Source of the DNA: Octopus vulgaris | Taxonomy: Eukaryota | DNA length: 64,000 bases | Assembly (NCBI GenBank): GCA_951406725.2 | Contig: OX597814.1 | Coordinates: forward strand, 124,496,001 to 124,560,000 | Direction: 5' to 3' | Shown here: positions 652 to 51,100 of the stretch, in pieces | How positions within the stretch are numbered: position 1 is the stretch's first letter | Layout of the letters: each line of letters opens with the position of its first letter | Translations under genes and position numbers: made by a program | The notes under the pieces: model-generated | What the model was told of the DNA's origin: nothing | What the model saw: the letters and a program-made list of their open reading frames with translations, nothing else | Database searches by the model: none

Positions 652-1050
652 CCTTTCTACTAAAGGCACAATGCCTGAAGTTTTTTCGGCAGGGGACTAT
701 TCGATTACATCGACGCTAGTGTGTCACTGGTACTTAATTTATCAATCCCCATAAGGATGAAAGGCAAAGTCGACCTCGGCGGAATTTGAACTCAGAACGT
801 GACGACAGACGAAATACTAATTTCTTTACTGCCCAGATGGGGCTACACACAGAGGGGGCAAACAAGGACAGACAAACGGATTAAGTCGATTATATCGACA
901 CCAGTACGTAACTGGTACTTAATTTATCGACCCCGAAAGGATGAAACGCAAAGTCGACCTCGGCGGAATTTGAACTCAGAACGTAACGGCAGACGAAATA
1001 CGGCTACGCATTTCGCCCGGCATGCTAACGTTTCTGCCAGCTCGCCGCCT
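652..1050 (-). mobile_element. SINE family A (tRNA-like head, multimeric body)
   Basis: Reverse complement of the head aggcggcgagctggcagaaacgttagc, B-box-like gagttcaaattcc, body gtcgactttgcctttcatcc twice; adjacent (TAA)n. Confidence 0.9.
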
Positions 1051-1797: not shown

Positions 1798-2212
1798 AGG
1801 CGGCGCGCTGGCAGAAACGTTAGCACGCCGGGCGAAATGCTCTGCAGGATTTCGTCTGCCGTTACGTTCTGAGTTCAAATTCTGCCGAGGTCGACTTTGC
1901 CTTTCATCCTTTCGGGGTCGATAAATTAAGTACCAGTAACGCACTGGGGTCGATATAATCGACTTAATCCGTTTGTCTGTCCTTGTTAGTCCCCTCTGTG
2001 TTTAACCCCTTGTGGGTAGTTAAGAAATAGGTATTTCGTCTGCCATTACGTTCTGAGTTCAAATTCCGCCGAGGTCGACTTTGCCTTTCATCCTTTCAGG
2101 GTCGATTAAATAAGTACCAGTTACGCACTGGGGTCGATGTAATCGACTTAATCCGTTTGTCTATCCTTGTTTGTCCCCTCTGTGTTTAGCCCTTTGTGGG
2201 CAATAAAGAAAT
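1798..2212 (+). mobile_element. SINE family A, dimer
   Basis: Head plus two ~184-bp units (gagttcaaat at 1871 and 2055); ends gggcaataaagaaat. Confidence 0.92.
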
Positions 2213-9089: not shown

Positions 9090-9415
<326 letters not shown>

Positions 9416-9539
9416 AAACTTAGTTCAATAAGAACAAGTTGAACTTTTTGGAGGGTTCAAAAAGTTAGATTTGTAATAAAGATTTTTCATATCAAAATAG
9501 TAATTTGCAAGTATTTAAAATATGAAAATAAGACAATAA

Positions 9540-10070
9540 TGTGTTATGAGAATTATAGGATAAAATCCTATGTAAACCCAAATAACAGTTAAGAAATGGA
9601 GAAGAGACGATGTTAAAACTTTTTATAAATTTTTTATCCGTATGATCGTTTCGAACGATAATACTGACATGTAAGAAAACATGGAAAAAAATTAAATTAA
9701 TTATAATAATAATTAATAATAATTAAGTTAAATTAATTCAATTGGTATTACCAATCTCTTCAGAGGAAAAAATTAATAAAACATAAAAAAATGTATTAAC
9801 AAAAGAATATTACAATAAGACTACAGAGAGTCTGTGTCGGTTAAAGTTGATCGGATATTCATAATAAGAATGTGAAATGGGAAAAGAGAGATGTAGGAAC
9901 ATGTTAATGTAGTGTTGAGTCTATCTGTGTAATTTAATTTTTTCCACGTTTTCTTACATTTCAGCATTATCATTCGAAACGATCGTATAAAAACTTTTAA
10001 CATCTCTTCTACATTTTTTAACTGTTAGTTGGGTTTAAATAGGATTTTATCCTATAATACTCATAACACA
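9540..10070. repeat. Long inverted repeat (arms ~9540-9699 and ~9930-10070)
   Basis: tgtgttatgagaattataggataaaatcctat pairs with ataggattttatcctataatactcataacaca; tgtaagaaaacatggaaaaaa pairs with ttttttccacgttttcttaca. Confidence 0.9.
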
Positions 10071-10094
10071 TTTTTAATTTTATATATATATATA

Positions 10095-10245
10095 GGGAGA
10101 GTTTATGAAAAAACAAAAGACGAAGACAGGTGGTGTACAAAACAAACAGATGTATTAGTATAACGTTCAGGAATAGAAAAAGTCTTTTACATTTCGAGCA
10201 TACGCACTGTAGAAAGGGACACAGAAAAAAACAAGGAGAGGAAAA
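10095..10245 (-). mobile_element. Short interspersed repeat with degenerate hammerhead-like core (same family as 44708-44903)
   Basis: aaaagacgaagac...gtattagt...aaagtcttttacatttcgagc is the reverse complement of sequence at 44780-44890. Confidence 0.75.
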
Positions 10246-10247
10246 AA

Positions 10248-10299
10248 CACAAAAATTCAGTTACAAGTAGATGTGAAAATTTCTTGCCATTGCTTGCGA

Positions 10300-10338
<39 letters not shown>

Positions 10339-10444
10339 TGGCCAACCAGCTAGTTTAAAACAAATCACTGCTGAACTGTGTCACCGAGTAGATTGCAGGC
10401 AGTGTCAAAAAATTTTGGCATCTACTTGTAACTGAATTTTTGTG
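10248..10444. repeat. Short inverted repeat (arms 10248-10303 and 10389-10444)
   Basis: cacaaaaattcagttacaagtagatg pairs with catctacttgtaactgaatttttgtg. Confidence 0.9.
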
Positions 10445-10496
10445 ATTTTGAATGGTTACAATGAGTCATGCACACTGTAATTGCTCTATGTTCGAA

Positions 10497-10747: not shown

Positions 10748-10823
<76 letters not shown>

Positions 10824-10885
10824 GTCATCTATCTACCTATCTATCTATCTATCTATCTATCTATCAATGTATCTATCTATCAATG

Positions 10886-10962
<77 letters not shown>

Positions 10963-11028
10963 GTCTGTCTGTCTGTCTCTCTGTCTATCTATCATCTATC
11001 TATCATCTATCTATCTATCTATCCATCT
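10748..11028 (+). repeat. (TATC)n/(TGTC)n array upstream of the LINE
   Basis: Direct reading. Confidence 0.95.
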
Positions 11029-11296
11029 ACGGACGTGCTGTCACTTCGGCTCCGAAGGTAATCGTTTATTTTGACTATTTATAGCCCATATTTTGTGTAC
11101 TTTTTTGTAAATAAGGTGTGTAAGGCACCCAACTTTCGTTTGAGTGCTTTTCCAAGGGAGGAATTCGCCCCTAGGGGCAGTTTCAACCCTATTTAATTTG
11201 TGTAATTTTCTTCTCGACATTTTGAAAATATCGAGAAATTGTATTGTAGAACGCTGGTCGCGTTCCTTTATCGACCAACATTTTCCTAGTCTGGAA

Positions 11297-13446
11297 ATGC
11301 TAGGAGAAGAAAAAAAGAACTCATGCACGCAAAGTGCAAACCTGAATGACATGGCAGTGAACGCTGCAACCACTTGCGATAACAGCACTGTCACCACCAC
11401 CACTAACAACAACAACGAGACTACTACTGCCACCACCACCGCCTCCACCACCACTACCACCACCGCCACCTCATCCACTACCTCAACTACCAACAACAAC
11501 AACAATAACAATGACAACAAGAATAACAACAATTGCGCCACCATTTCGACATCTGCTGCCACGGCTGTCTCTTCTGCCACTGACACCACCGCCAACACCA
11601 CCACCACCACCAACAACAACAATTGTTTACTCCAACACCAAGAACTGAAGGGAATAAACAAAAGACTGTGACCACCAAACAAATTGACAAAAGCTGCTCG
11701 AACACAGGAACAAACTATGCAAGTAATTTTCCACCCCTTCCTACTTGCACAATTAAACCAAATACACCGATTTTACTAACTGCAGCCAACAACAACATCA
11801 TCACCAGCAACAACAATAACAAAACAACAACAAATTTCGCCGAGGCGATAAAAGAAAAAAAGACAACAGTATATTTTACTGCACAGCAGATAAAAGATAC
11901 GAATATTTTAATAACGGAAGTAGATGGTATAGTAAAAATAAACATACCACAAGAAATATTAGAAAATGAAAAAAAGAACTATTATATATAAAATAATTAA
12001 TAAGAAAACAAAAAGTCCAGAGAAGGCTAACACAAGCAAAATCGAAAAATGCTTGAAACCCATCTGGAACTACAAAGAGTATGTGACCTGATGGAACAAG
12101 TTCGCACACATACAAGTGGTCTTCCACACTGAAGAGTTAGCAAGACGTTTCTCAACGCTAACTCTTCATTCAGATGAACTGCAACTAACACCAAGCTATC
12201 GTGGAACAGAAAGTGACTAAGATCACTTTAAACAATGTCCCAAAAATAGCGAACAATCTATGGCTAGTAAAGGCCTTATGTGTGAAAATGGAAGATTTCA
12301 CAATTTTAGAAACTACGGTCACGGAGCACAAAAACTGGGTGGGAAAAAAAGTAGAATTTCTACTACATATAAACCAAGATGACATAAAGAAAATACCCAC
12401 CCAGATATGTGTATCAGAAGACCACAAGTTGTATGTGGTCGTCGATGGCAGAAGACCACGTTGCTACATATGCGGCAGTGAGCATCACCTAAAAAAAGAT
12501 TGCAAATATGCCGCAAGAAAACAACAGCAACAACAACAGCAGCCGGAAAAAACAAAAAAGCCAGCTTTACTACCCACACCACAAATTGTACAAACAGGAC
12601 TAATCACAGAAAATAAATAAAAAAAACCTCACCAACCAAACAACCACACCAACTGCAGCAAGAACAGAAGCAACACCACCAACAACAACAACCAAGAATA
12701 AACCAACTCCCAAACCAAGGACATCTGCCAAAAAGACACTCATCGAAAATGAAGAAACAATTACTACTCCAAATCCCCACAAAATTGACACCCCAAACAA
12801 CACAACAATACCTACAATCACTCAAACACAAAATACCCACACCCCACCTCCAAAACCGCATACACCACAACCTAACGCTCACCAACCAACACCAACAACA
12901 AAATCAACACAGTCTACAATAGACCCCAATATTTTCCTTCTCCCAAGCTCTGATTCCTCTGATTTGTCATTAGACGAAGAAGACACAGAAGATTGGCAAA
13001 TAGCCACAGGGGGGAGAAGAAAAAGGGAAAAAAAAGAAAAGAAAAGATAACAAACAAAGCAGGAAGATTCACCACTCCTGAAACAAAAACATCCACAGAA
13101 AACAAAAACATCCACAGAAAACAAACACATCAACACAAACACACCATCATCAAACCCTCCAACGATGTTGATAGCCATAAACACAAACAACCACGACCTA
13201 ATGGAACACATTAGGTCAAACACCAACATAACTGAAAACGACATAAAAACAAATAACCACCCACGCACAACACCACCACAACACATTAAAATAATACACG
13301 TAACACAGAACACATACAGCACCCTGAAATCTCTTTACCCTGATGCAGTAGGGAGATTTCAAAAATATTCATCAAAGAAACTATATAAAAACCTCATGGA
13401 AGAAGACTGTGAGGTGAAAAACAAAGGACTTTCGAACAACAAATAA
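11297..13446 (+). pseudogene. LINE ORF1 (gag-like), frameshifted
   Basis: Successive fragments 11297-11671, 11623-11991, 12201-12620, 13165-13446; zinc knuckle CYICGSEHHLKKDC (CX2CX4HX4C); Thr/Asn/Pro/Lys low-complexity tracts. Confidence 0.8.
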
Positions 13447-13514
13447 CCTTTTCTCTCTCTCTTACCTTTTTTGCACTTTCTTTTCGTGTGTAAAACACAA
13501 TTTTTTATCGGAAC

Positions 13515-16500
13515 ATGCTCAGAATAGGCAGTATAAATGTATGTGGCTTGGGGTCGCCTTTGGAAACAAGGCTACCTGTTAAATGACATCAAGTCACTAA
13601 ATCTGAATATCATAGCCATCAGTGAGACCAGACTCCACAGCTCGCTGGCACTCCAGCACAGTTTCGGTACACATTTCAACATTTATTTTTCTCCGTGTCT
13701 ACCGAGAATGGGCGGAGGTGGCACCGCGCTGCTTCTCCGGAAGAGTCTGGATCTCAAAGTAAGAGCAATTTTCCCAGAACCGGAGGGTAGGCTGGTCGTT
13801 TTGGATGTCGATGGCAGCAATAAGTGTGCTTTTCGACTGATAGCAGTTTATGCTCCGTCCTTAACAGGCCGACCAGATTTCTTTCGACGTCTAGAGTCTT
13901 TCATGGGAACGTCTCGTCCTTTACTTTTAGTGGGGGATTGGAATGCCACCCTTGGACATGCATCTAGACTACGTGGGCAGAGATAGCAATAGAAGGGGAT
14001 GCGAATGCCTCAAAGACCTGCTCAGACGTTTCCAACTGTCTGACAGGTACCGACTGGACCACTCGAATGTGCCAATGTGGACATGGAGTAACCGCATCGG
14101 TTCGTCCAGATCATACTTAGATAGAGTATTCTGTAGGACAATAGATAAAAATAGTGTAGGTTGTCCACAAATTCATATAGTCAGTTACACAGATCACAAG
14201 TTTGTGACTTGTACACTTGACTTAGATAAGACACATAGGCAGGGTCCTGGTTACTGGAAACTGAACGCGTCTTTTACAGCACGACAGATTTACAGGGACC
14301 GGATCAGCACATTAGTTAAGAGAGCCTTGACGGGTACCATCATCAACAACAGATGGTGGTATGCCCTAAAAAAGCAATTAAAGCAGAATCAGTCAGATAC
14401 AGTAAAGCCCTAGCATTAGACCGAAATAGAATAGAGGGAGAATTAGTTAAGGTTTTAGAAGAGGCACTTAGAACTGGCATCGCGTCCAACGTGCTGGCGG
14501 CGAGATTGGCCCTCGACCAACACCTCAACGCCAATCACGAGGGATGCGTTGTCAGAGCTAGGATGCGTGCTCTGAGGAACGAAGGAGTTGGAGCCGCCCA
14601 AGAGGCCCGAGTGGTGGAGACGCAACGAGGCAACAGAGCCACCATCAAGTCTCTTATAGATGAACAGGGGCGCGAATTGCTCGAGCCTAAAAGGATGTGT
14701 GGGGCTTTTCAACAACACTTCACCCAACTGTTTGGGACAAGTGGTGGGTCAGAACGCAGAGTGGACTTTAGTGCCTACCTGCATGCCTTGCCACGACTCT
14801 CAGCAAGAGAGGTGGAGTCTTGTGAAAGGCCTATCACAGCTGCGGACGTACAGGATGCGATAGGGGTCTGCGCGAGAGACAAGTCACCAGGCTTGGATGG
14901 TCTGCCCTACGAACTTTATTGTCATATGCCAGACTTGTTTAGAGGCGTCTTGGCAGCTGTCTACTGCAACTGGCAACAAAACGGGAGTATTCCTGCTTTT
15001 GTAAAGCGAGGAGCAGTGGCACTGATTAAAAAAGACCGAAACAAGGGGGACGTCATAGATAATTTCAGGCCCATCACTCTGCTCAACGCAGATTTGAAAA
15101 TTTTGGCCAAGGTGTTAGCCGAGAGATTGGCGCTTGTCATCAAGAAACTAATCGACAAGGCGCAAATATGCGCCGTGCCGGGTAGAAGTATTCATGACAA
15201 CCTCCATCTGATGCGCTACATCATAGACAGGGTTGTTAAGAATCCTGGCATGGGTGGGGCGCTGATCAATTTGGATCAATCAAAAGCTTTCGATAGGGTA
15301 GACCATCACTACTTGGAGGCTGTCCTTAAAGCGGCTGGTTTCGGTCCAGTTTTCCGCGGTTGGATCGCTGCCTTATACAGCGGCATCCGCTCAGTAGTTC
15401 GCGTAAATGGTCATCTATCCAGACCTTTTAACATCATGCGTTCGGTTCGTCAGGGATGCCCCCTCTCATCGCTGCTGTATGTATTGACTCTTGAGCCACT
15501 ACTGCGGAAACTGGCGACGCTGAGGGACATCCCACGAGAGCTGGGATGCGGGAGGAGCGTGTCTGCATACGCGGATGACGTCACCGCCATAGTGTCGAGC
15601 TACCAGCACATCGAGCTGGTCGGCGAGACACTAAAAGAATACGAAGCGGTAACGGGAGCAAAAATTAACCGGGAAAAGTCAGTGGGCTTGCGGCTCGGCA
15701 CCTGGAGAAGCAAGCCCATGCTGTCCAACAGCGTCTCCATCGTGGGACGCTGGACGGACGGACCGGTTAAATTGCTCGGGGTCTGGTTCGGTCCGGACCT
15801 CCAAATGGAGAAGAACTGGAGCGAGATAACGACTAGGGTGGCTACTCTCACCCAGAAATGGGCTGAGAGAAAGCTATCCCTAAAAGGTCGGGCGGAGGTG
15901 GCGAACTCGTACATTGCATCCGTCATCGAGTATCGTCTGACCGTCGTGCCTTGTCCCGACCCTACCATCACCAAACTGGAACGTATACTCTTCCGCTTCT
16001 TGTGGAAGGGAAACGTTCCGATGGTTAGGCGATCCATTTGCTGTCAACACCCGCTAAATGGAGGGCTGGGCATGCCGTGGTTGATGATGCACAGACATGC
16101 GCTGAGACTGCGACATCTCCGGTGCTTCATAGACAACGGTGAACAGGTGTAGTCGCCTTTTGTGCGGCGCGCTTTCCCGCAGCTCGTCTCCTTGGACGAA
16201 CTACAGTCATGGATCAAGCAGAGACCGAGGCTAGGCGAATGGCACCGCGAGTGTCGCGTTGCTCTCAAGCAACTCTGCCGTCCGGGTTCGAACTTGTGCG
16301 ACTCCATCACAACAAAGGCATTCTATAGAGGATTAGTGGAGGGGAGGTGCGACGACGAACTCGGGTAGAGTCTGGGCGTCGACGAGGAACACCTGACCCG
16401 CCTGTTCAGGACAACTTTCGGGCCGGGACCTATGAACAATCACCAAAGATCCCTGGCCTGGCAGGTGTGGGACGAATCCGCCTATCGGCCGAGTCTGTCG

Positions 16501-16783
16501 TGAGAATTGCTCCGCCCCCTTCCCTCAACCGGGAAGGCAAGGTAGTTTTCATCGTACTGGTGGCCATGGTGAAAGAATGTGTGTGGTGGACCCGAGCGAA
16601 AGGATTAGAGACAAACACTTACCTCTCTGGCCAATCGCTCATCAACTTTTTCAAGTACCACTTGAAAAGGAAGGTGAGAATGGAGAGGGAAGTTTTGTCT
16701 CGCGAAAGATTAAAAAAAGATGGGTGAATGTTGCAAAGATGGTGCGTGCTAGTGACGAAACCATTTTGAGCATGATCCTGTAG
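13515..16783 (+). pseudogene. LINE ORF2: apurinic endonuclease + reverse transcriptase, with frameshifts and stops
   Basis: Start MLRIGSINV; APE motifs ISET, VYAP, GDWN, SYLDR, TDH; RT motifs KSPGLDG, FRPITLLNADLKI, LDQSKAFDRV, RQGCPLS, YADD; 599-aa open segment at 14353-16152. Confidence 0.93.
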
Positions 16784-17081
16784 ATCGTAAAAAAGAAAGA
16801 GAGAGAGCATTTTGCTCTCATGTGGTTATTTCCTCCCTGACTGAGGTTCCCGTGGTCTTTTCTGTAGGCTTTTCTTCCCACGGATGAACCCAATCTTGTT
16901 TTATCAATGTTTTTATCATTGTTTCTGTGATACACGATTTCTTTTCTTTTTTTTTCCTCCTCTCGATCCCTTTTATTGCAATCTTATATTTATTTTCTTT
17001 TTTTCCACCCTCGAAAAGAAAAGCTCTACATTTGTATTTGTCCCCTCTGTATTCAGCCCTGTGTGGCTAATAAAAGAAAGT

Positions 17082-17088
17082 TATCTAC

Positions 17089-17176
<88 letters not shown>

Positions 17177-17239
17177 TTGTCTGTCTATCTGTCTGTCTGT
17201 CTGTCTATCTATCATCTATCTATCATCTATCTATCTATC

Positions 17240-17315
<76 letters not shown>

Positions 17316-17336
17316 GTCTGTCTGTCTGTCTGTCTA
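17082..17336 (+). repeat. (TATC)n/(TGTC)n array downstream of the LINE
   Basis: Direct reading. Confidence 0.95.
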
Positions 17337-18589
17337 TTTACATAAAAATATATGCGAGTGGAGTAACTTATTGCTATGCATGCATGTGAATATGTGTATA
17401 TATTATGTGGGCGTGTTCTTTAGGTTTCCGTTGTAGCTGTATCTAATTATTTACTGCTACTGGCTAAATGTGTTGTTCATTCAAAATTTACAATATTCGA
17501 TAGAATATCCTATATTCTATATTTATATTTGAAGAATATATTTTTAAATGCGGTTACCGTTCCACGATAAACCTTAAACTTAGCGTTACTCCTCTCTCTT
17601 GTCTTAAATTCAGCTTCTTGCATTTCTGTGTCTTTCTACCATTTTCCTCCAAATATTTTCTCTTGTTCCTCCTTTCTTGTCCCTCACACCCTAAAATTCC
17701 GACTCTCACGTAAACTCTGCTCCTCTCTCTGCTCCTCACTCTTTCTCTTTTCGCTTACATCTTTACTCACTCACCAATATTTATACTTTAAACTCTTCTT
17801 TAGTGTAACTCATATTCTACACGACAACATTACTTTCTCACTCTCTGCGTATCAGTCTCCTTCTTTCTCTCTTTTCGTCATTCACTGACGAAACCAACGC
17901 CCGAAACTTTATATTTTAACGTTTCTCATGACAACTGAACTTAACTGAACTCTCCTCTGGAGTAATTGTAACCGGTGTAGATCATCAGAAGTTGATAGGA
18001 AGTTGATACCTGATTACATATGCATATACAAACATAAATCTATACGAGTGTATATAAGTGTGTGTATGGACATATGTATGCATAATATGCATGTATGTGT
18101 ATGTGTGTGTATTATAATGCATATATACATATATGCATTCATACATATGAATTTACATGCTTACATATGGCTTACTGTTGTACATATATTTTATTGTGAG
18201 ATATTTCTTTATGAAGATATATGATGATAACTATCCGCAACATTTATGCCTCTGGTATTAGACTCGCTCTCAAGTAAATAGTTATTCTTTTAATCGTTCG
18301 AATCAAAGAAATATTTTTTCATTGAAGGTAACTAGCAATACTTCATAGAAGCTTCGTTTCATCAGTTGAGAAGATTGCATTGCTACAAGTAACATGGCTA
18401 GACAACCTAATAATAACATACAACAACAGCAACAGCAGCGGTAGCAAGCAGCAGCCACGACGAACGAAAATATACCGAGCAGAAAATAAAAAAAGAAACC
18501 ATGTGCGTCTGGTGTTAGTGTGCGTGCCTGAAGTACATGCATACACACAAATATATGTACGTATATGTGTGTATGTGTGTGTGTGTGTA

Positions 18590-18783: not shown

Positions 18784-18873
18784 GGGAAGATTAATTCCAC
18801 GTCCACAGGAATGAGACGTTCAAATTAAAGGTACTAAAGTGAACTTCTCTCAATATTTTATTCACATATATAA

Positions 18874-19825
18874 AAGTAGTTTTAGAGACAGAACCCCCCT
18901 CAACTCAATCAACACTGAAAGGTATTATACCCGACTGAGCCATAAAATATTAAATATGATACTATATCTATTCAGAATTCCATACTTTCCATTTTAAAGA
19001 CAACATGTGTTTCATGACAGCATGTCGGGTTTTTTTTTTAGATATAATGTCTCTAGTTTCAATACTCAATTAGATCGACGTACTCCCAATCTTCAGGTCT
19101 GGATTCTACACATTTATTACTCTATCTACATTCTATATGACTCTATGATGAGTGAAATAATTTGACTAAAAATTGTTAACATAATTTAACTTTACAAATT
19201 AAAGAATTAAAATAAAAATTAAAATAATGAATGAACCTTAAAAATTTAAGAAATAGAAAATAAAATTACCCCCCTTACATTGGAATTATCAAGTATGGAT
19301 TGTACGTTTTTTGCAAGATGTAGCCATGTTTAATTTTCGCAGGGAGGGAGCCACAAATAGATAAGTTAACATTCGTTTTGTTCATTATTTTAAATTTTAT
19401 TTCGTATTTTTTATTCGTATTTTTTATTCTCTTTTATTCCTTAAATTTTTGTTTCTTAAATTTTTAAGGTTCATTCATTATTTTTATTTTTATTTTTATT
19501 CATTAATTTGTAAAGTTGAATTATGTTGACGATTTTTAGTCAAATAATTTCAATCATCATAGAGTTATATAAAATGTAGATAAAGTAATAAATGTGTAGA
19601 ATCCAGACCTGAAGATTGGGAGTACGTCGCTCTAATTCAGTATTGAAACTAGAGACCTTATATCTCAACAATACCGACATACTGTCATGAAACACGTGTT
19701 GTCTTTAAAATAGAAAGTATGGGATACTGAATTGATATAGTATCATATTTAATATTTTATAGCTCGGTCGGGTATAATATCTTTCAATGTTAATTTAGTT
19801 GAGGATGGTTCTGTCTCTAAAACTA

Positions 19826-19828
<3 letters not shown>
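18874..19828. repeat. Long inverted repeat (arms ~18874-19260 and ~19447-19828)
   Basis: aagtagttttagagacagaacc pairs with ggttctgtctctaaaactactt; complementarity continues over ~385 bp; each arm carries CTGAAGA...GAAACTAG. Confidence 0.95.
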
Positions 19829-19863
<35 letters not shown>

Positions 19864-20224: not shown

Positions 20225-20623
20225 ATATTTACTACTCTAGGCACAAGGGCCTGAAAATTTGGGGTAGGGGTCCAGTAGGTTAGATCGACCGGAGTACGCA
20301 ACTGGTACTTAATTTATCGACCCCGAAAGGATGAAAGGCAAAGACGATCTTGGTGAGATTTGAACTCCGAACGTAAAGACAGACGAAATACCTATTTCTT
20401 TACTACCCACGAGGGGCTAAACATAAAGGGGATGAACAAGGACAGACAGAGGGATTAAGTCGAGTATATCGACCCCAATGCGTAACTGGTACTTATTTAA
20501 TCAACCCCGAAAGATGAAAGGCAAAGTCGACCTCGGCGGAATTTGAACTCAGAACGTAGCGGCGGACGAAATACTGCTAAGCATTTCGCCCGGCGTGCTA
20601 ACGTTTCTGCCAGCTCGCCGCCT
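20225..20623 (-). mobile_element. SINE family A, dimer
   Basis: Reverse-complement head ending ctcgccgcct at ~20623; two body units. Confidence 0.9.
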
Positions 20624-30309: not shown

Positions 30310-31100
30310 CGTGGCACCTTGAGCAAATATCTATACTATAGCCTCGGCCCAAGCAAAACTATATGAGTAGATTTGGTAGATAGAAACTGAGATAAGGCGG
30401 CGAGTTGGCAAAAACGTTAGCACGCTGGGCGAAATGCGTAGCCGTATTTCGTCTGCCGTTACGTTCTGAGTTCAAATTCCGCCGAGGTCAACTTTATCTT
30501 TCATCCTTTCGGGGTCGATAAATTAAGTACCAGTTACGCATTGGGATCGATATAATCGACTTAATCCGTTTGCCTGTCCTTGTTTGTCCTCTCTGTGTTT
30601 AGCCCCTTGTGGGTAGTAAAGAAATAGGTATTTCGTCTGCCGTTACGTTCTGAGTTCAAATTCCGTCGAGGTCGACTTTGCCTTTCATCCTTTCGGGGTC
30701 GATTGAATAAGTACCAGTTATGCACTGGGATCGATGTAATCGACTTACTCCCTTTGTCTGTCCTTGTTTGTCCTCTCTATGTTTAGCCCCTTGTGGGCAA
30801 TAAAGAACTAAGAAATTGAAAGAAGCTCCTCGTACATATTTATATATGTGCGCGCGCATCCACGTGTCTGTATTTGTGTGTGTGCGTGTGTATCTATTTA
30901 TATATGTGTCTGTATTTGTCACCCCACCATCGCTTGTTGACAACCAATGCTGATGTGCTTATGTCCCTGTAACTTAACGGTTCGGTGAAAATGACCGATA
31001 GAATAAGTACTAGGCGCTCGATTTCTTCGACTAAAATCCTTTAAGATGGTTCTCCAGCATGGCCGACGTCAAATGGCTGAAACACGTGAAAGGTTAAAAG
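30310..31100 (+). mobile_element. SINE family B split by a SINE A dimer (30394-30810)
   Basis: Family B sequence stops at gaaactgaga (~30390) and resumes at gaaattgaaagaagc (~30812). Confidence 0.88.
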
Positions 31101-42110: not shown

Positions 42111-42525
42111 AGGCGGCGAGCTGGTAGAATCGTTAGCACGCCGGGCGAAATGCGTAGCCGTATTTCGTCTGCTGTTACGTTCTCAGTTCAAATTCCGCCG
42201 AGGTCGACTTTGCCTTTCATCCTTTCTGGGTCGATAAATTAAGCACTAGTTACACACTGGGGTAGATATAATCGACTTAATCCGTTTGTCTGTCCTTGTT
42301 TGTCCTCTCTGTGTTTAGCCCCTTGTGGGTAGTAAAGAAATAGGTATTTCGTCTGCTGCTACGTTCTGAGTTCAAATTCCGCCGAGGTCGACTTTGCCTT
42401 TCATCCTTTCGGGGTCGATTAAATAAGTACCAGTTACGCACTGGGGTCGATGTAATCGACTTACTCCCTTTGCCTGTCCTTGTTTGTCCCCGCTATGTTT
42501 AGCCCCTTGTGGGCAATAAAGAATT
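42111..42525 (+). mobile_element. SINE family A, dimer
   Basis: Head plus two units ending agccccttgtgggcaataaagaa. Confidence 0.92.
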
Positions 42526-47391: not shown

Positions 47392-48682
47392 TTCTGTGAC
47401 TACCATCTCCATTCAGTATCATACTGTGCTATCTCCCACAGTTTCTATCTTCCACACAATCTGTTCACAGAAGAAGCTAAGTACTACGATACACACAAGA
47501 CATGAAGGAAAAATATGCAAAAAGAAAAAAAAGTCAACAAAAACACAACAAAATCCGGAAAAAAAGTGAAGACAAGGAAATATAACCCACTTCAATCTTT
47601 TACTCCACCTCCGCAAAAAAAAAAAAAAAAGAGAAGAAACACAAACACTTCCCAATCTTGGAAGACTTGTGGGTTAAGTAGAGAAGAAGTTAGGGAGGAG
47701 CAGAAAGAAAAAAGAGGATTTTTGAAGCAAGGAATATGACAAATACGGATTCTTCTTAAAAGTCTATTGAGTCTATCAAAAACTTTACCATTTTCTCAGG
47801 CTTTTTCTCTGCAAGATTCAAGTTTTGTTAGGGACTTATAAATTCCCTAAATCTTAAAATACATTTCGAAGAAACAAAAACTAAAGAAACGTTTACAAAA
47901 AGTTTTAAAATAATCCCGTACGCACACATACACACACACACACAAAAAAAAAATCACAATTTTTTTCTTGTATTTCCTCGATGTTTATGTTCTTTTTCGT
48001 TTTGTAGTTCTCTCTACTTTCTGTTTTATTTTTACTTATTTATTTATTTATTTTTTAAATATATTAATGCTTTAGTTCTGAAAGATTTGTTGTCTCAGAT
48101 GAAATAAATTTGACCTTTACTTATTGGTTAAAATGTCACATTCTCAACCTGTCAAAACTGATTCGACTTCTTCATTAAAAACACTTCCACAATCGATTTT
48201 CTGATTTCAATATCTCACATGAAAGTAAATACTTAAAAACTCCATCTTTTTTTTCACTTTTTTTTTAACCTCCAACTCTTATTTCTTCGTGTGTCTGTTT
48301 TGTTACTCTACGTACTGATGTCAAAATATTATGCTGTGGCATAAGTGTAAGGCATTGGATTTATAGTAATGTCTTCCCACCGAGGAGGAAATTGTGGTGG
48401 AAATTGCAAGTATCTTCTTGCGTTTAGTTTTTACTGGCTTCAGTCATTGGACTGAGGCCATACTGGGGCTTCGCCTTCAACAAATCTATCTCACAGTACT
48501 CATGTTCTCTTTTTTAAAGTCTTGTATTTTATTCTATAGGTCACTTTTGTCGAATCGGTAAGTTAAGGGATGTAAACAAACTAGCTTATCAAGCTGTGTA
48601 CGTTTGTGAAGAGCAAACACAGACTCAAAGACACAAACACATACACACACGTGTACGCGCGCACACCCGTATCTATCAATCT

Positions 48683-49076
<394 letters not shown>

Positions 49077-50525: not shown

Positions 50526-51100
50526 AGGCGGCGAGCTGGCAGAATCCTTAGCACGCAGGGTAAAATGCTTAGCGCTATTTCGTCTGCCGCTACGTTCTGA
50601 GTTCAAATTCCGGCGAGGTCGACTTTGCTTTCACCCTTTCGGGGTCGATAAATTAAGTACCAGTTACGCACTGGGGTCGATATAATCGACTTAGTCCGTT
50701 GGTCTGTCCTTGTTTGTCCCCTCTGTGTTTAGCCCCTTGTGGGTAGTAAAGAAATAGGTATTTCGTCTGCCGTTACGTTCTGAGTTCAAATTCCGCCAAG
50801 GTCGACTTTGCCTTTCGTCCTTTCGGGCTCGATTAAATAAGAACCAGTTACGCACTGCGGTCGATGTAATCGATTTAATCCGTTTGTCTGTCCTTGTTTG
50901 TACTCTCTGTGTTTAGCCCCTTGTGGGTAGTAAAGAAATAGGTATTTCGTCCGTCTTTATGTTCAAATTTCGCCGAGGGCGACTTTACCTTTCATCTTTT
51001 GGGGATCAATAAAATAAGTGTCAGCTGGGGCACTGAGGTCGATGTAATCAATTTAATCCCCTCTCTGGAATTGCTGGCTTTGTGCCAAAATTTGAAACCA
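50526..51100 (+). mobile_element. SINE family A, trimer
   Basis: Head plus three units (~183-bp period); the last unit has the alternative tail ggaattgctggctttgtgccaaaatttgaaacc. Confidence 0.92.

Follow-up and report, generated by a model that had tools for sequence, protein, structure and literature searches.

A decayed L1/Tx1-like LINE between two copies of a variant-marked (TATC)n segment in Octopus vulgaris, a possible long target-site duplication

A stretch of 64,000 nucleotides of the Octopus vulgaris genome (assembly GCA_951406725.2, contig OX597814.1, positions 124,496,001 to 124,560,000 of the forward strand; hereafter the window, numbered from its first base) holds one retrotransposon that lacks long terminal repeats (non-LTR), a decayed 6.05-kb element with two open reading frames (ORFs) on the + strand at 11029-17079, inside an (ATCT)n array (Table 1). 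The element is an L1/Tx1-like long interspersed nuclear element (LINE). As in the L1 group, there are two ORFs and ORF2 carries an N-terminal apurinic/apyrimidinic-type endonuclease (APE) followed by the reverse transcriptase (RT), with Pfam matches to Exo_endo_phos (E=3e-9) and RVT_1 (E=9e-31). The closest solved structure in a PDB search was L1 ORF2p (E=2e-49, versus 2e-18 for R2; 10 matches, no RTE or CR1 entry among them), and the C-terminal zf-RVT domain is present in relatives P0121 and P0122, while a ~150-bp deletion near 16470 has removed most of this region from the window copy itself. A CCHC knuckle, and not a vertebrate L1-type ORF1, is a feature of the Tx1 clade, and a zf-CCHC match was found in ORF1 (E=0.002 in the window, below the Pfam cut-off; above the cut-off in two of eight ORF1 relatives). 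The comparison set included 135 ORF1 relatives; a word search with ORF1 found no relative. From the first tree, one protein (P0133) was excluded for its short overlap. The best named sequence matches belong to Argonauta hians (68%) and Acanthosepion pharaonis (47%). The narrower label Tx1 is likely, with RT trees that held no named Tx1 or L1 reference. For Octopus vulgaris, 80 L1-Tx1 families have been reported, 13 of them recently active (PMC13282606).

The copy is probably full length and not 5'-truncated, because its 268-bp leader resembles those of intact relatives (275-429 bp, spacer included, in five loci of the sister lineage described below). Its ORF1 counterparts in relatives are intact proteins of 500-620 amino acids. 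The N-terminus of ORF1 (11380-11630) is made up of (ACC/AAC)n triplets that yield low-complexity Thr/Asn runs, and (CAA/CAG)n runs are positioned further downstream in the ORF1s of the sister lineage. In total the damage comprises three stops, about seven small indels and the one deletion, with the nonsense codons of ORF2 at 16150 and 16365; the ORF2 frame change near 13560 was judged by eye from the translations. The 3' end consists of AATAAA and a few purines, without poly(A). No second copy or fragment of the LINE occurs in the 64 kb, apart from a 43-bp match to a short interspersed nuclear element (SINE), and tblastn with seven relatives found no further LINE fragment in the window outside 11029-17079.

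Table 1. Positions of the LINE, its flanking arrays and the window SINE (window coordinates).
Feature	Coordinates	Strand	Remarks
Left-only host microsatellite, (ATCT)19	10748..10823	+	76 bp unique
Left copy of duplicated flank	10824..11028	+	205 bp
5' untranslated region (UTR)	11029..11296	+	268 bp; first base uncertain by about 2-6 nt
ORF1	11297..13446	+	frameshifts near 11975, 12206, about 12620; one stop near 12090
ORF1 CCHC knuckle	12459-12506	+	zf-CCHC
ORF2, APE endonuclease + RT	13515..16783	+	frame changes near 13560, 13950, 14370, 16710
RT domain	15037..15786	+	Pfam RVT_1, E=9e-31
3' UTR	16784..17079	+	T-rich, terminal AATAAA
Terminal 43-bp motif	17037..17079	+	pyrimidine box, 4-bp stem-loop, AATAAA
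Right copy of duplicated flank	17080..17243	+	164 bp
Right-only host microsatellite, about (ATCT)18 (GTCT)5	17244..17334	+	91 bp unique
SINE examples	1798-2212(+), 30395-30809(+), 42111-42525(+), 48684-48913(-), 654-1050(-), 20229-20623(-), 50526-51098(+)		

Both sides of the element read (ATCT/TATC)n on the + strand (10748-11029 and 17082-17337). With A for ATCT and G for GTCT, the left array is A19 GTC A2 ACCT A6 ATCA ATGT A2 ATCA ATGT A12 G6 A G4 CTCT G A ATC A2 ATC A4 ATCC A, followed by the element, and the right array, directly after the element, is GTT A ACCT A21 ATTT G2 A G4 A ATC A2 ATC A3 ATC A19 G5. The two flanks share an order of markers: an ACCT variant (10832 and 17084), 22-24 units, a G block split by an A and ending in G4 (G-A-G4 at 10955 and 17183), and a 40-bp word, identical on both sides, that holds two 3-bp ATC variants (10980-11019 = 17200-17239). 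The left GTC-A2, minus one 4-bp unit, corresponds to the right GTT-A, and therefore the shared part may begin at the first base after the element; the left copy starts at 10824 if GTC is homologous to the post-element GTT and otherwise at about 10831, and the opening 2-3 bases of the right copy (GT) may belong to the element instead. The shared segment stops 9 bp 5' of the element start and resumes within 5 bp of its 3' end, a geometry of X-P-element-P-Y as for a target duplication, with P of 205 and 164 bp. Beyond their lengths, the two copies differ in run lengths and in about five one-sided variants. A word of six nucleotides, lying about 11025-11030 at the left junction, recurs at about 17083-17088, a weak match with a chance of about 1 in 3. 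Elsewhere in the window there are six other ATCT arrays: the ATC word, with five occurrences in 64 kb, all in the two flanks, is in none of them, ACCT is in two and a G block in one. A (TATC)n array of 54 units in the same orientation lies at 9091-9305, 1.4 kb upstream of the left flank, and none of its variant 12-mers is in common with either LINE flank.

An earlier note on this DNA, made from the letters alone, had described a Tx1-like LINE with (TATC)n in the same orientation on both sides, no poly(A), and an apparent flank duplication of 160-200 bp recorded in repeat variants. The arrays and the 3' end are as it described, its coordinates for the shared blocks were right to within about 6 bp, and the duplication is present as two segments with the same variant order and the polarity of a target duplication; its family assignment holds as L1/Tx1-like on the domains, the structure match and the trees.

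How much of the shared pattern could arise by chance depends on the statistic. The score of a local alignment of units was reached by none of 1500 unit shuffles and by 36 of 1500 block shuffles. An exact shared chain of at least five variant transitions appeared in 1 of 4000 shuffles (3 of 12000 in a larger run) and, with variant clusters left whole as a conservative null, in 79 of 12000, while an order-only statistic was reached by 129 of 4000. The sharing of variant 12-mers (887/4000) and 20-mers (662/4000) was not significant, in statistics that are largely insensitive to order. The variant types are a given in all shuffles, and the choice of statistics was post hoc, with the data already seen. 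Since GACA and GAT belong to the standard variant units of GATA arrays (PMC11526555), the variant types themselves prove little, and the signal is in their order, spacing and position. These figures bear on convergence, in which a LINE inserted normally into a GATA array and the two halves independently acquired the commonest variants. Such an account is helped by the textbook status of GACA and GAT (PMC11526555), by the presence of ACCT and a G block in other window arrays, and by the k-mer results and the post hoc choice of statistics; against it, the exact 40-bp word and the G-A-G4 word are confined to the two flanks in the window, the conservative null was reached in only the 79 shuffles given above, and the polarity suits duplication. 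Convergence is distinctly unlikely, and the two flank segments very probably share one origin. Two further candidates were rejected or set aside. The left array could have been the tail of an earlier truncated copy, but no 3'-UTR-like sequence precedes it and the window has no second element copy; a 3' transduction, after which the element reinserted locally and its first copy was precisely lost, is unparsimonious, needing exchange within 1-2 repeat units.

The element and the duplication can be compared in age. The two nonsense codons of ORF2 in 3256 bp, with 4.2% of changes nonsense, give a decay of 1.5% (95% interval 0.2-5.3%), which would correspond to roughly 4 million years on the scale of PMC13282606 (0.09 = 25 million years). 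For the flanks, about five one-sided variants in ~160 bp give 1.5-2% per copy; nucleotide alignments of the flank copies (0 and 2 mismatches) bury substitutions in gaps and were not used for divergence. Because the flank divergence is close to the decay of the element, the duplication need not postdate the insertion and may be as old, with a wide error.

The 3' end of the LINE is shared with an abundant SINE of the window, which has 16 starts in 64 kb. It combines one head with one to three copies of a 184-bp internal unit and one of three alternative 3' tails. Between the terminal 43 bp of the LINE and the 3' end of the b-type SINE the identity is 77-86%, in seven window matches in which both 3' ends coincide (best 86%, E=1e-6), and SINE forms a and c carry the version of the motif found in the sister LINE lineage, a match that rests on alignment because the window SINE and UTRs, compared by BLASTN with the sister-lineage and related loci, gave nothing at E<=0.01. 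Among 21 sequences, the motif is predicted to fold into a stem of 4 bp closed by a conserved 5-nt loop. Of 84 cells, 92.9% are paired; three of the four pairs have two-sided changes, and the covariation is 0.56 as opposed to 0.16 in shuffled alignments (0/500) and <=0.20 when slid. Few independent lineages are represented, the pairing in the window LINE is one base out of register, folding of single sequences is weak (z only -1.3 to -2.6), and there is no two-sided stem change within the LINE and b-type SINE alone. This putative conserved 3' stem-loop, common to these coleoid LINEs and the window SINE, is new and ties a very abundant SINE to L1/Tx1-like LINEs as its likely mobilisers, with the 43 bp as the presumed true end of the LINE. 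At 77-86% tail identity, the driver of the b-type SINE is probably a relative of the window LINE rather than its own family. A reading of the terminal 43 bp as a truncated SINE is disfavoured, in that the sister LINEs carry a homologous 3' motif and the 43 bp include the terminal AATAAA. Target-site duplications (TSDs) of 9-21 bp were found at 12 of the 16 SINE starts; one b-type SINE (48680-49076) was inserted where a GATA/GACA array of 163 bp ends, and has a TSD of 13 bp.

Relatives of the LINE from outside the window provide a view of the junctions of the wider clade. Scanned with a profile, bacterial and archaeal genomes yielded 43 loci, 39 of which are animal-like contigs in one metagenome-assembled record, while a scan of these genomes with a single protein found no relative. 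The 39 loci (L001-L037, L042 and L043) hold intact elements with 45-47% identity to the window LINE (one partial match, 51%) and form its sister clade with support of 100/99, grouping with a protein labelled Acanthosepion pharaonis. The record, titled 'uncultured Arenicella sp.' in GTDB, includes 17 contigs (CAXXMW010000002-18) composed of intact animal LINE arrays, a probable case of host contamination in a bacterial species representative. The other four loci (L038-L041), on contigs of Fusobacteriaceae and Metamycoplasmataceae metagenome-assembled genomes, hold distant L1-group ORF2s of 28-32% identity, are probably eukaryotic contamination as well, and were excluded from the junction analysis as distant.

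The sister-lineage elements are arranged head to tail, one every 6.4-6.9 kb or so, and at 47 distinct 3' ends a short array-specific spacer is followed by the next element. The copies in such arrays are intact (L029 3870-10303, L023 10305-11200 and L020 126-1025), with 5'-truncated copies among them behind the same 17-bp spacer. The arrays suggest that sister LINEs self-target their own TSD and that there are several distinct target sequences. A 'G at +1 of the TSD' was considered as a rule of the lineage and not established, as the shared segment begins with A in one array. With a 5' ribozyme or an RNA-gene target in mind, no Rfam match was found in the window at the gathering threshold, nor in the 12 of 43 loci scanned, and no tRNA was found in the 36 of 43 loci scanned. 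The wider clade makes ordinary TSDs and is not tied to microsatellites. At an identity of only 46%, the window LINE family may still have a special habit, since Tx1 targets vary from family to family (PMC4494074).

We tentatively prefer, at a probability of roughly 0.45, a reading in which the flank duplication is a sporadic, one-off long TSD produced at insertion and not the fixed length of a family. A LINE of the L1/Tx1-like kind, full in length and from a coleoid, probably octopod, lineage, would have entered a compound (ATCT)n array of about 350 bp by target-primed reverse transcription. A bottom-strand nick at or beside the GTC/ACCT variants (10824-10831) may have primed complementary DNA (cDNA) synthesis from the 3' end of the RNA, whose stem-loop, by analogy with other LINEs, would be the likely recognition signal. 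The 5' end would then have joined about 40-50 repeat units downstream, compared to the usual ~4, and either a distant second nick or a slipped pairing between cDNA and top strand, followed by strand-displacement synthesis, could have copied the intervening ~170-200 bp. A join at such a distance is conceivable within a tandem repeat because nick site and microhomology are the same in every unit. The element would have died afterwards, with the flank copies drifting through slippage and point mutation.

A possible but more doubtful account is recombination after insertion, with an ordinary short TSD made first and the variant stretch later copied to the left side. The copying could have occurred through break repair or gene conversion templated by the right flank, which lies 6 kb off as a direct repeat; through misaligned exchange between a filled and an empty allele; or through a crossover in two allelic copies inserted at different array registers, where 6 kb of homology would resolve to X-P-element-P-Y. 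All of the short-range evidence is of ordinary TSDs (17 bp in the sister lineage, 9-21 bp at the 12 SINE starts), the head-to-tail arrays of the sister lineage imply that repeated insertion and/or unequal exchange at one locus occurs in the clade, the 6-nt word at both junctions could be, weakly, the original short TSD, and a non-slippage origin has been suggested for long interrupted short tandem repeat alleles (PMC11526555). Recombination, however, requires a second rare event with ends at both element junctions, and the divergence of the flank copies is similar to the decay of the element, within a wide error. Hardly probable is an assembly artefact, in which the array of an empty haplotype was joined to a filled haplotype, so that the two copies would be alleles. 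Assemblies typically switch haplotype at microsatellites, but the 64 kb hold no N despite many long arrays, which suggests long reads able to span 300 bp, and with a decay of about 1.5% the insertion is likely fixed and would have no empty haplotype beside it.

A long TSD made at insertion is favoured by a shared segment that reaches both ends of the element with the polarity of a TSD, by the rarity of its chain of variants among the shuffles, by compatible ages and by the precedents cited below. Several results weigh against it. There is only one copy in the 64-kb window, so that the association with (TATC)n is one of one, and the anchoring of the shared segment at the junctions is predicted equally by recombination. 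Of 20 junction matches in the largest sister family, some of them counted twice through overlapping loci, 17 have spacers of 16-18 bp and three of 24-26 bp; exactly 17 bp also precede a 5'-truncated sister copy that is 99.5% identical to the unit, and because of this the 17-bp spacer is target DNA. None of the 43 loci contains an (ATCT)3 run. All four b-tail SINE copies have short TSDs (16, 9, 12 and 13 bp) and lie mostly at non-repeat sites, the one of the four in a GATA array being on the strand opposite to the LINE arrangement. To these are added the k-mer sharing, which was not significant, and the 36 block shuffles that reached the alignment score.

Returning to the one-off TSD at insertion, its two broader extensions differ in standing. 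That the family of the window LINE prefers (TATC)n arrays is somewhat probable, as judged from the base rate (runs of (ATCT)>=5 make up 1.0% of the rest of the window, and all microsatellites 10%) and from Tx1 precedent, and allowing for the selection inherent in the locus having been flagged. An R9-like trait, by which an octopod Tx1-like family would nick (TATC)n with its APE, regularly join its 5' end tens of repeat units away from the first nick and duplicate 100-200 bp of microsatellite per insertion, is improbable. The earlier note had proposed a lineage of this kind; its two flanks of one origin stand, while the step from one locus to a lineage is unsupported, the proxies having short TSDs. 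If true, the trait would give R9 a counterpart of the APE type, arisen in a clade in which the TSDs of sister families measure 17 bp, and would imply retrotransposon-driven lengthening and homogenising of GATA arrays. The TSDs of microsatellite-targeting LINEs are normally unreadable in pure repeat, and here variants mark a duplication roughly ten times as long as usual. Should it have been made at insertion, it bears on the little-understood later half of target-primed reverse transcription, the choice of the second nick and 5' join; if it results from recombination or an assembly join, the locus is a curiosity.

Among the other elements in the window, an element of about 985 bp at 18859-19843 has long terminal inverted repeats (arms of 177 and 231 bp, about 90%), ends at a TA run, and is like a foldback element or a miniature inverted-repeat transposable element (MITE). 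Smaller inverted-repeat elements at 9535-10075 and 10243-10449, with outer arms of 73 bp and 61 bp, are probably MITEs. Long ORFs elsewhere in the window have mostly the appearance of low-complexity sequence or repeat read-through.

A literature search that omits most subscription papers and Repbase Reports returned no report of a (TATC/GATA)n-targeting Tx1, a long Tx1 TSD or this LINE-SINE pairing. Tx1 families target (TC)n, (TTC)n, (TTCC)n and (TTTC)n microsatellites, with a preference called where over 20% of flanks agree (PMC4494074), and a (TATC)n target would extend this series of TC, TTC, TTCC and TTTC. Kibi, Koshi and the crocodilian Tx1 families are likewise APE and RT LINEs of the L1/Tx1 kind in a TC-containing microsatellite, but their hosts are fish and crocodilians and the portions of these reports consulted mention no (TATC)n target or long TSD (PMC4494074, PMC3812793). 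The sister coleoid lineage similarly has two ORFs, no poly(A), the same predicted 3' stem-loop and 45-47% identity in the RT region, and differs in its intact head-to-tail arrays, short spacers and non-microsatellite targets. R9 has an endonuclease of the restriction-like (RLE) type and a TSD of one fixed length. The R9 element of Adineta vaga is a non-LTR element that also makes a duplication of >100 bp (a 126-bp TSD; PMC6895275, PMC2861651), and, unlike R9 with its specificity for ribosomal DNA, the window LINE has an APE domain and sits as a single copy in a microsatellite, with no Rfam family in the window. The Tx1-Mar/SINEU pair includes a SINE with a LINE 3'-terminal motif, as in the window LINE and the b-type SINE (PMC4494074), whereas the tails of the latter two are only about 77-86% identical. 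At R1 junctions, flank sequence that is part of the RNA anneals and acts as a guide (PMC2718515). The TSDs of APE LINEs are generally 10-20 bp, as opposed to 126 bp for R9 (PMC6895275), though APE-type L1 occasionally makes TSDs of over 40 bp, one of them 92 bp (PMC4398972). Mammalian L1 is, like the window LINE, of the APE kind and now and then has a TSD well beyond 10-20 bp, but its long TSDs come from reports on somatic cells or cell culture and lie in unique DNA, while the window LINE is germline, old and inside a repeat (PMC4398972).

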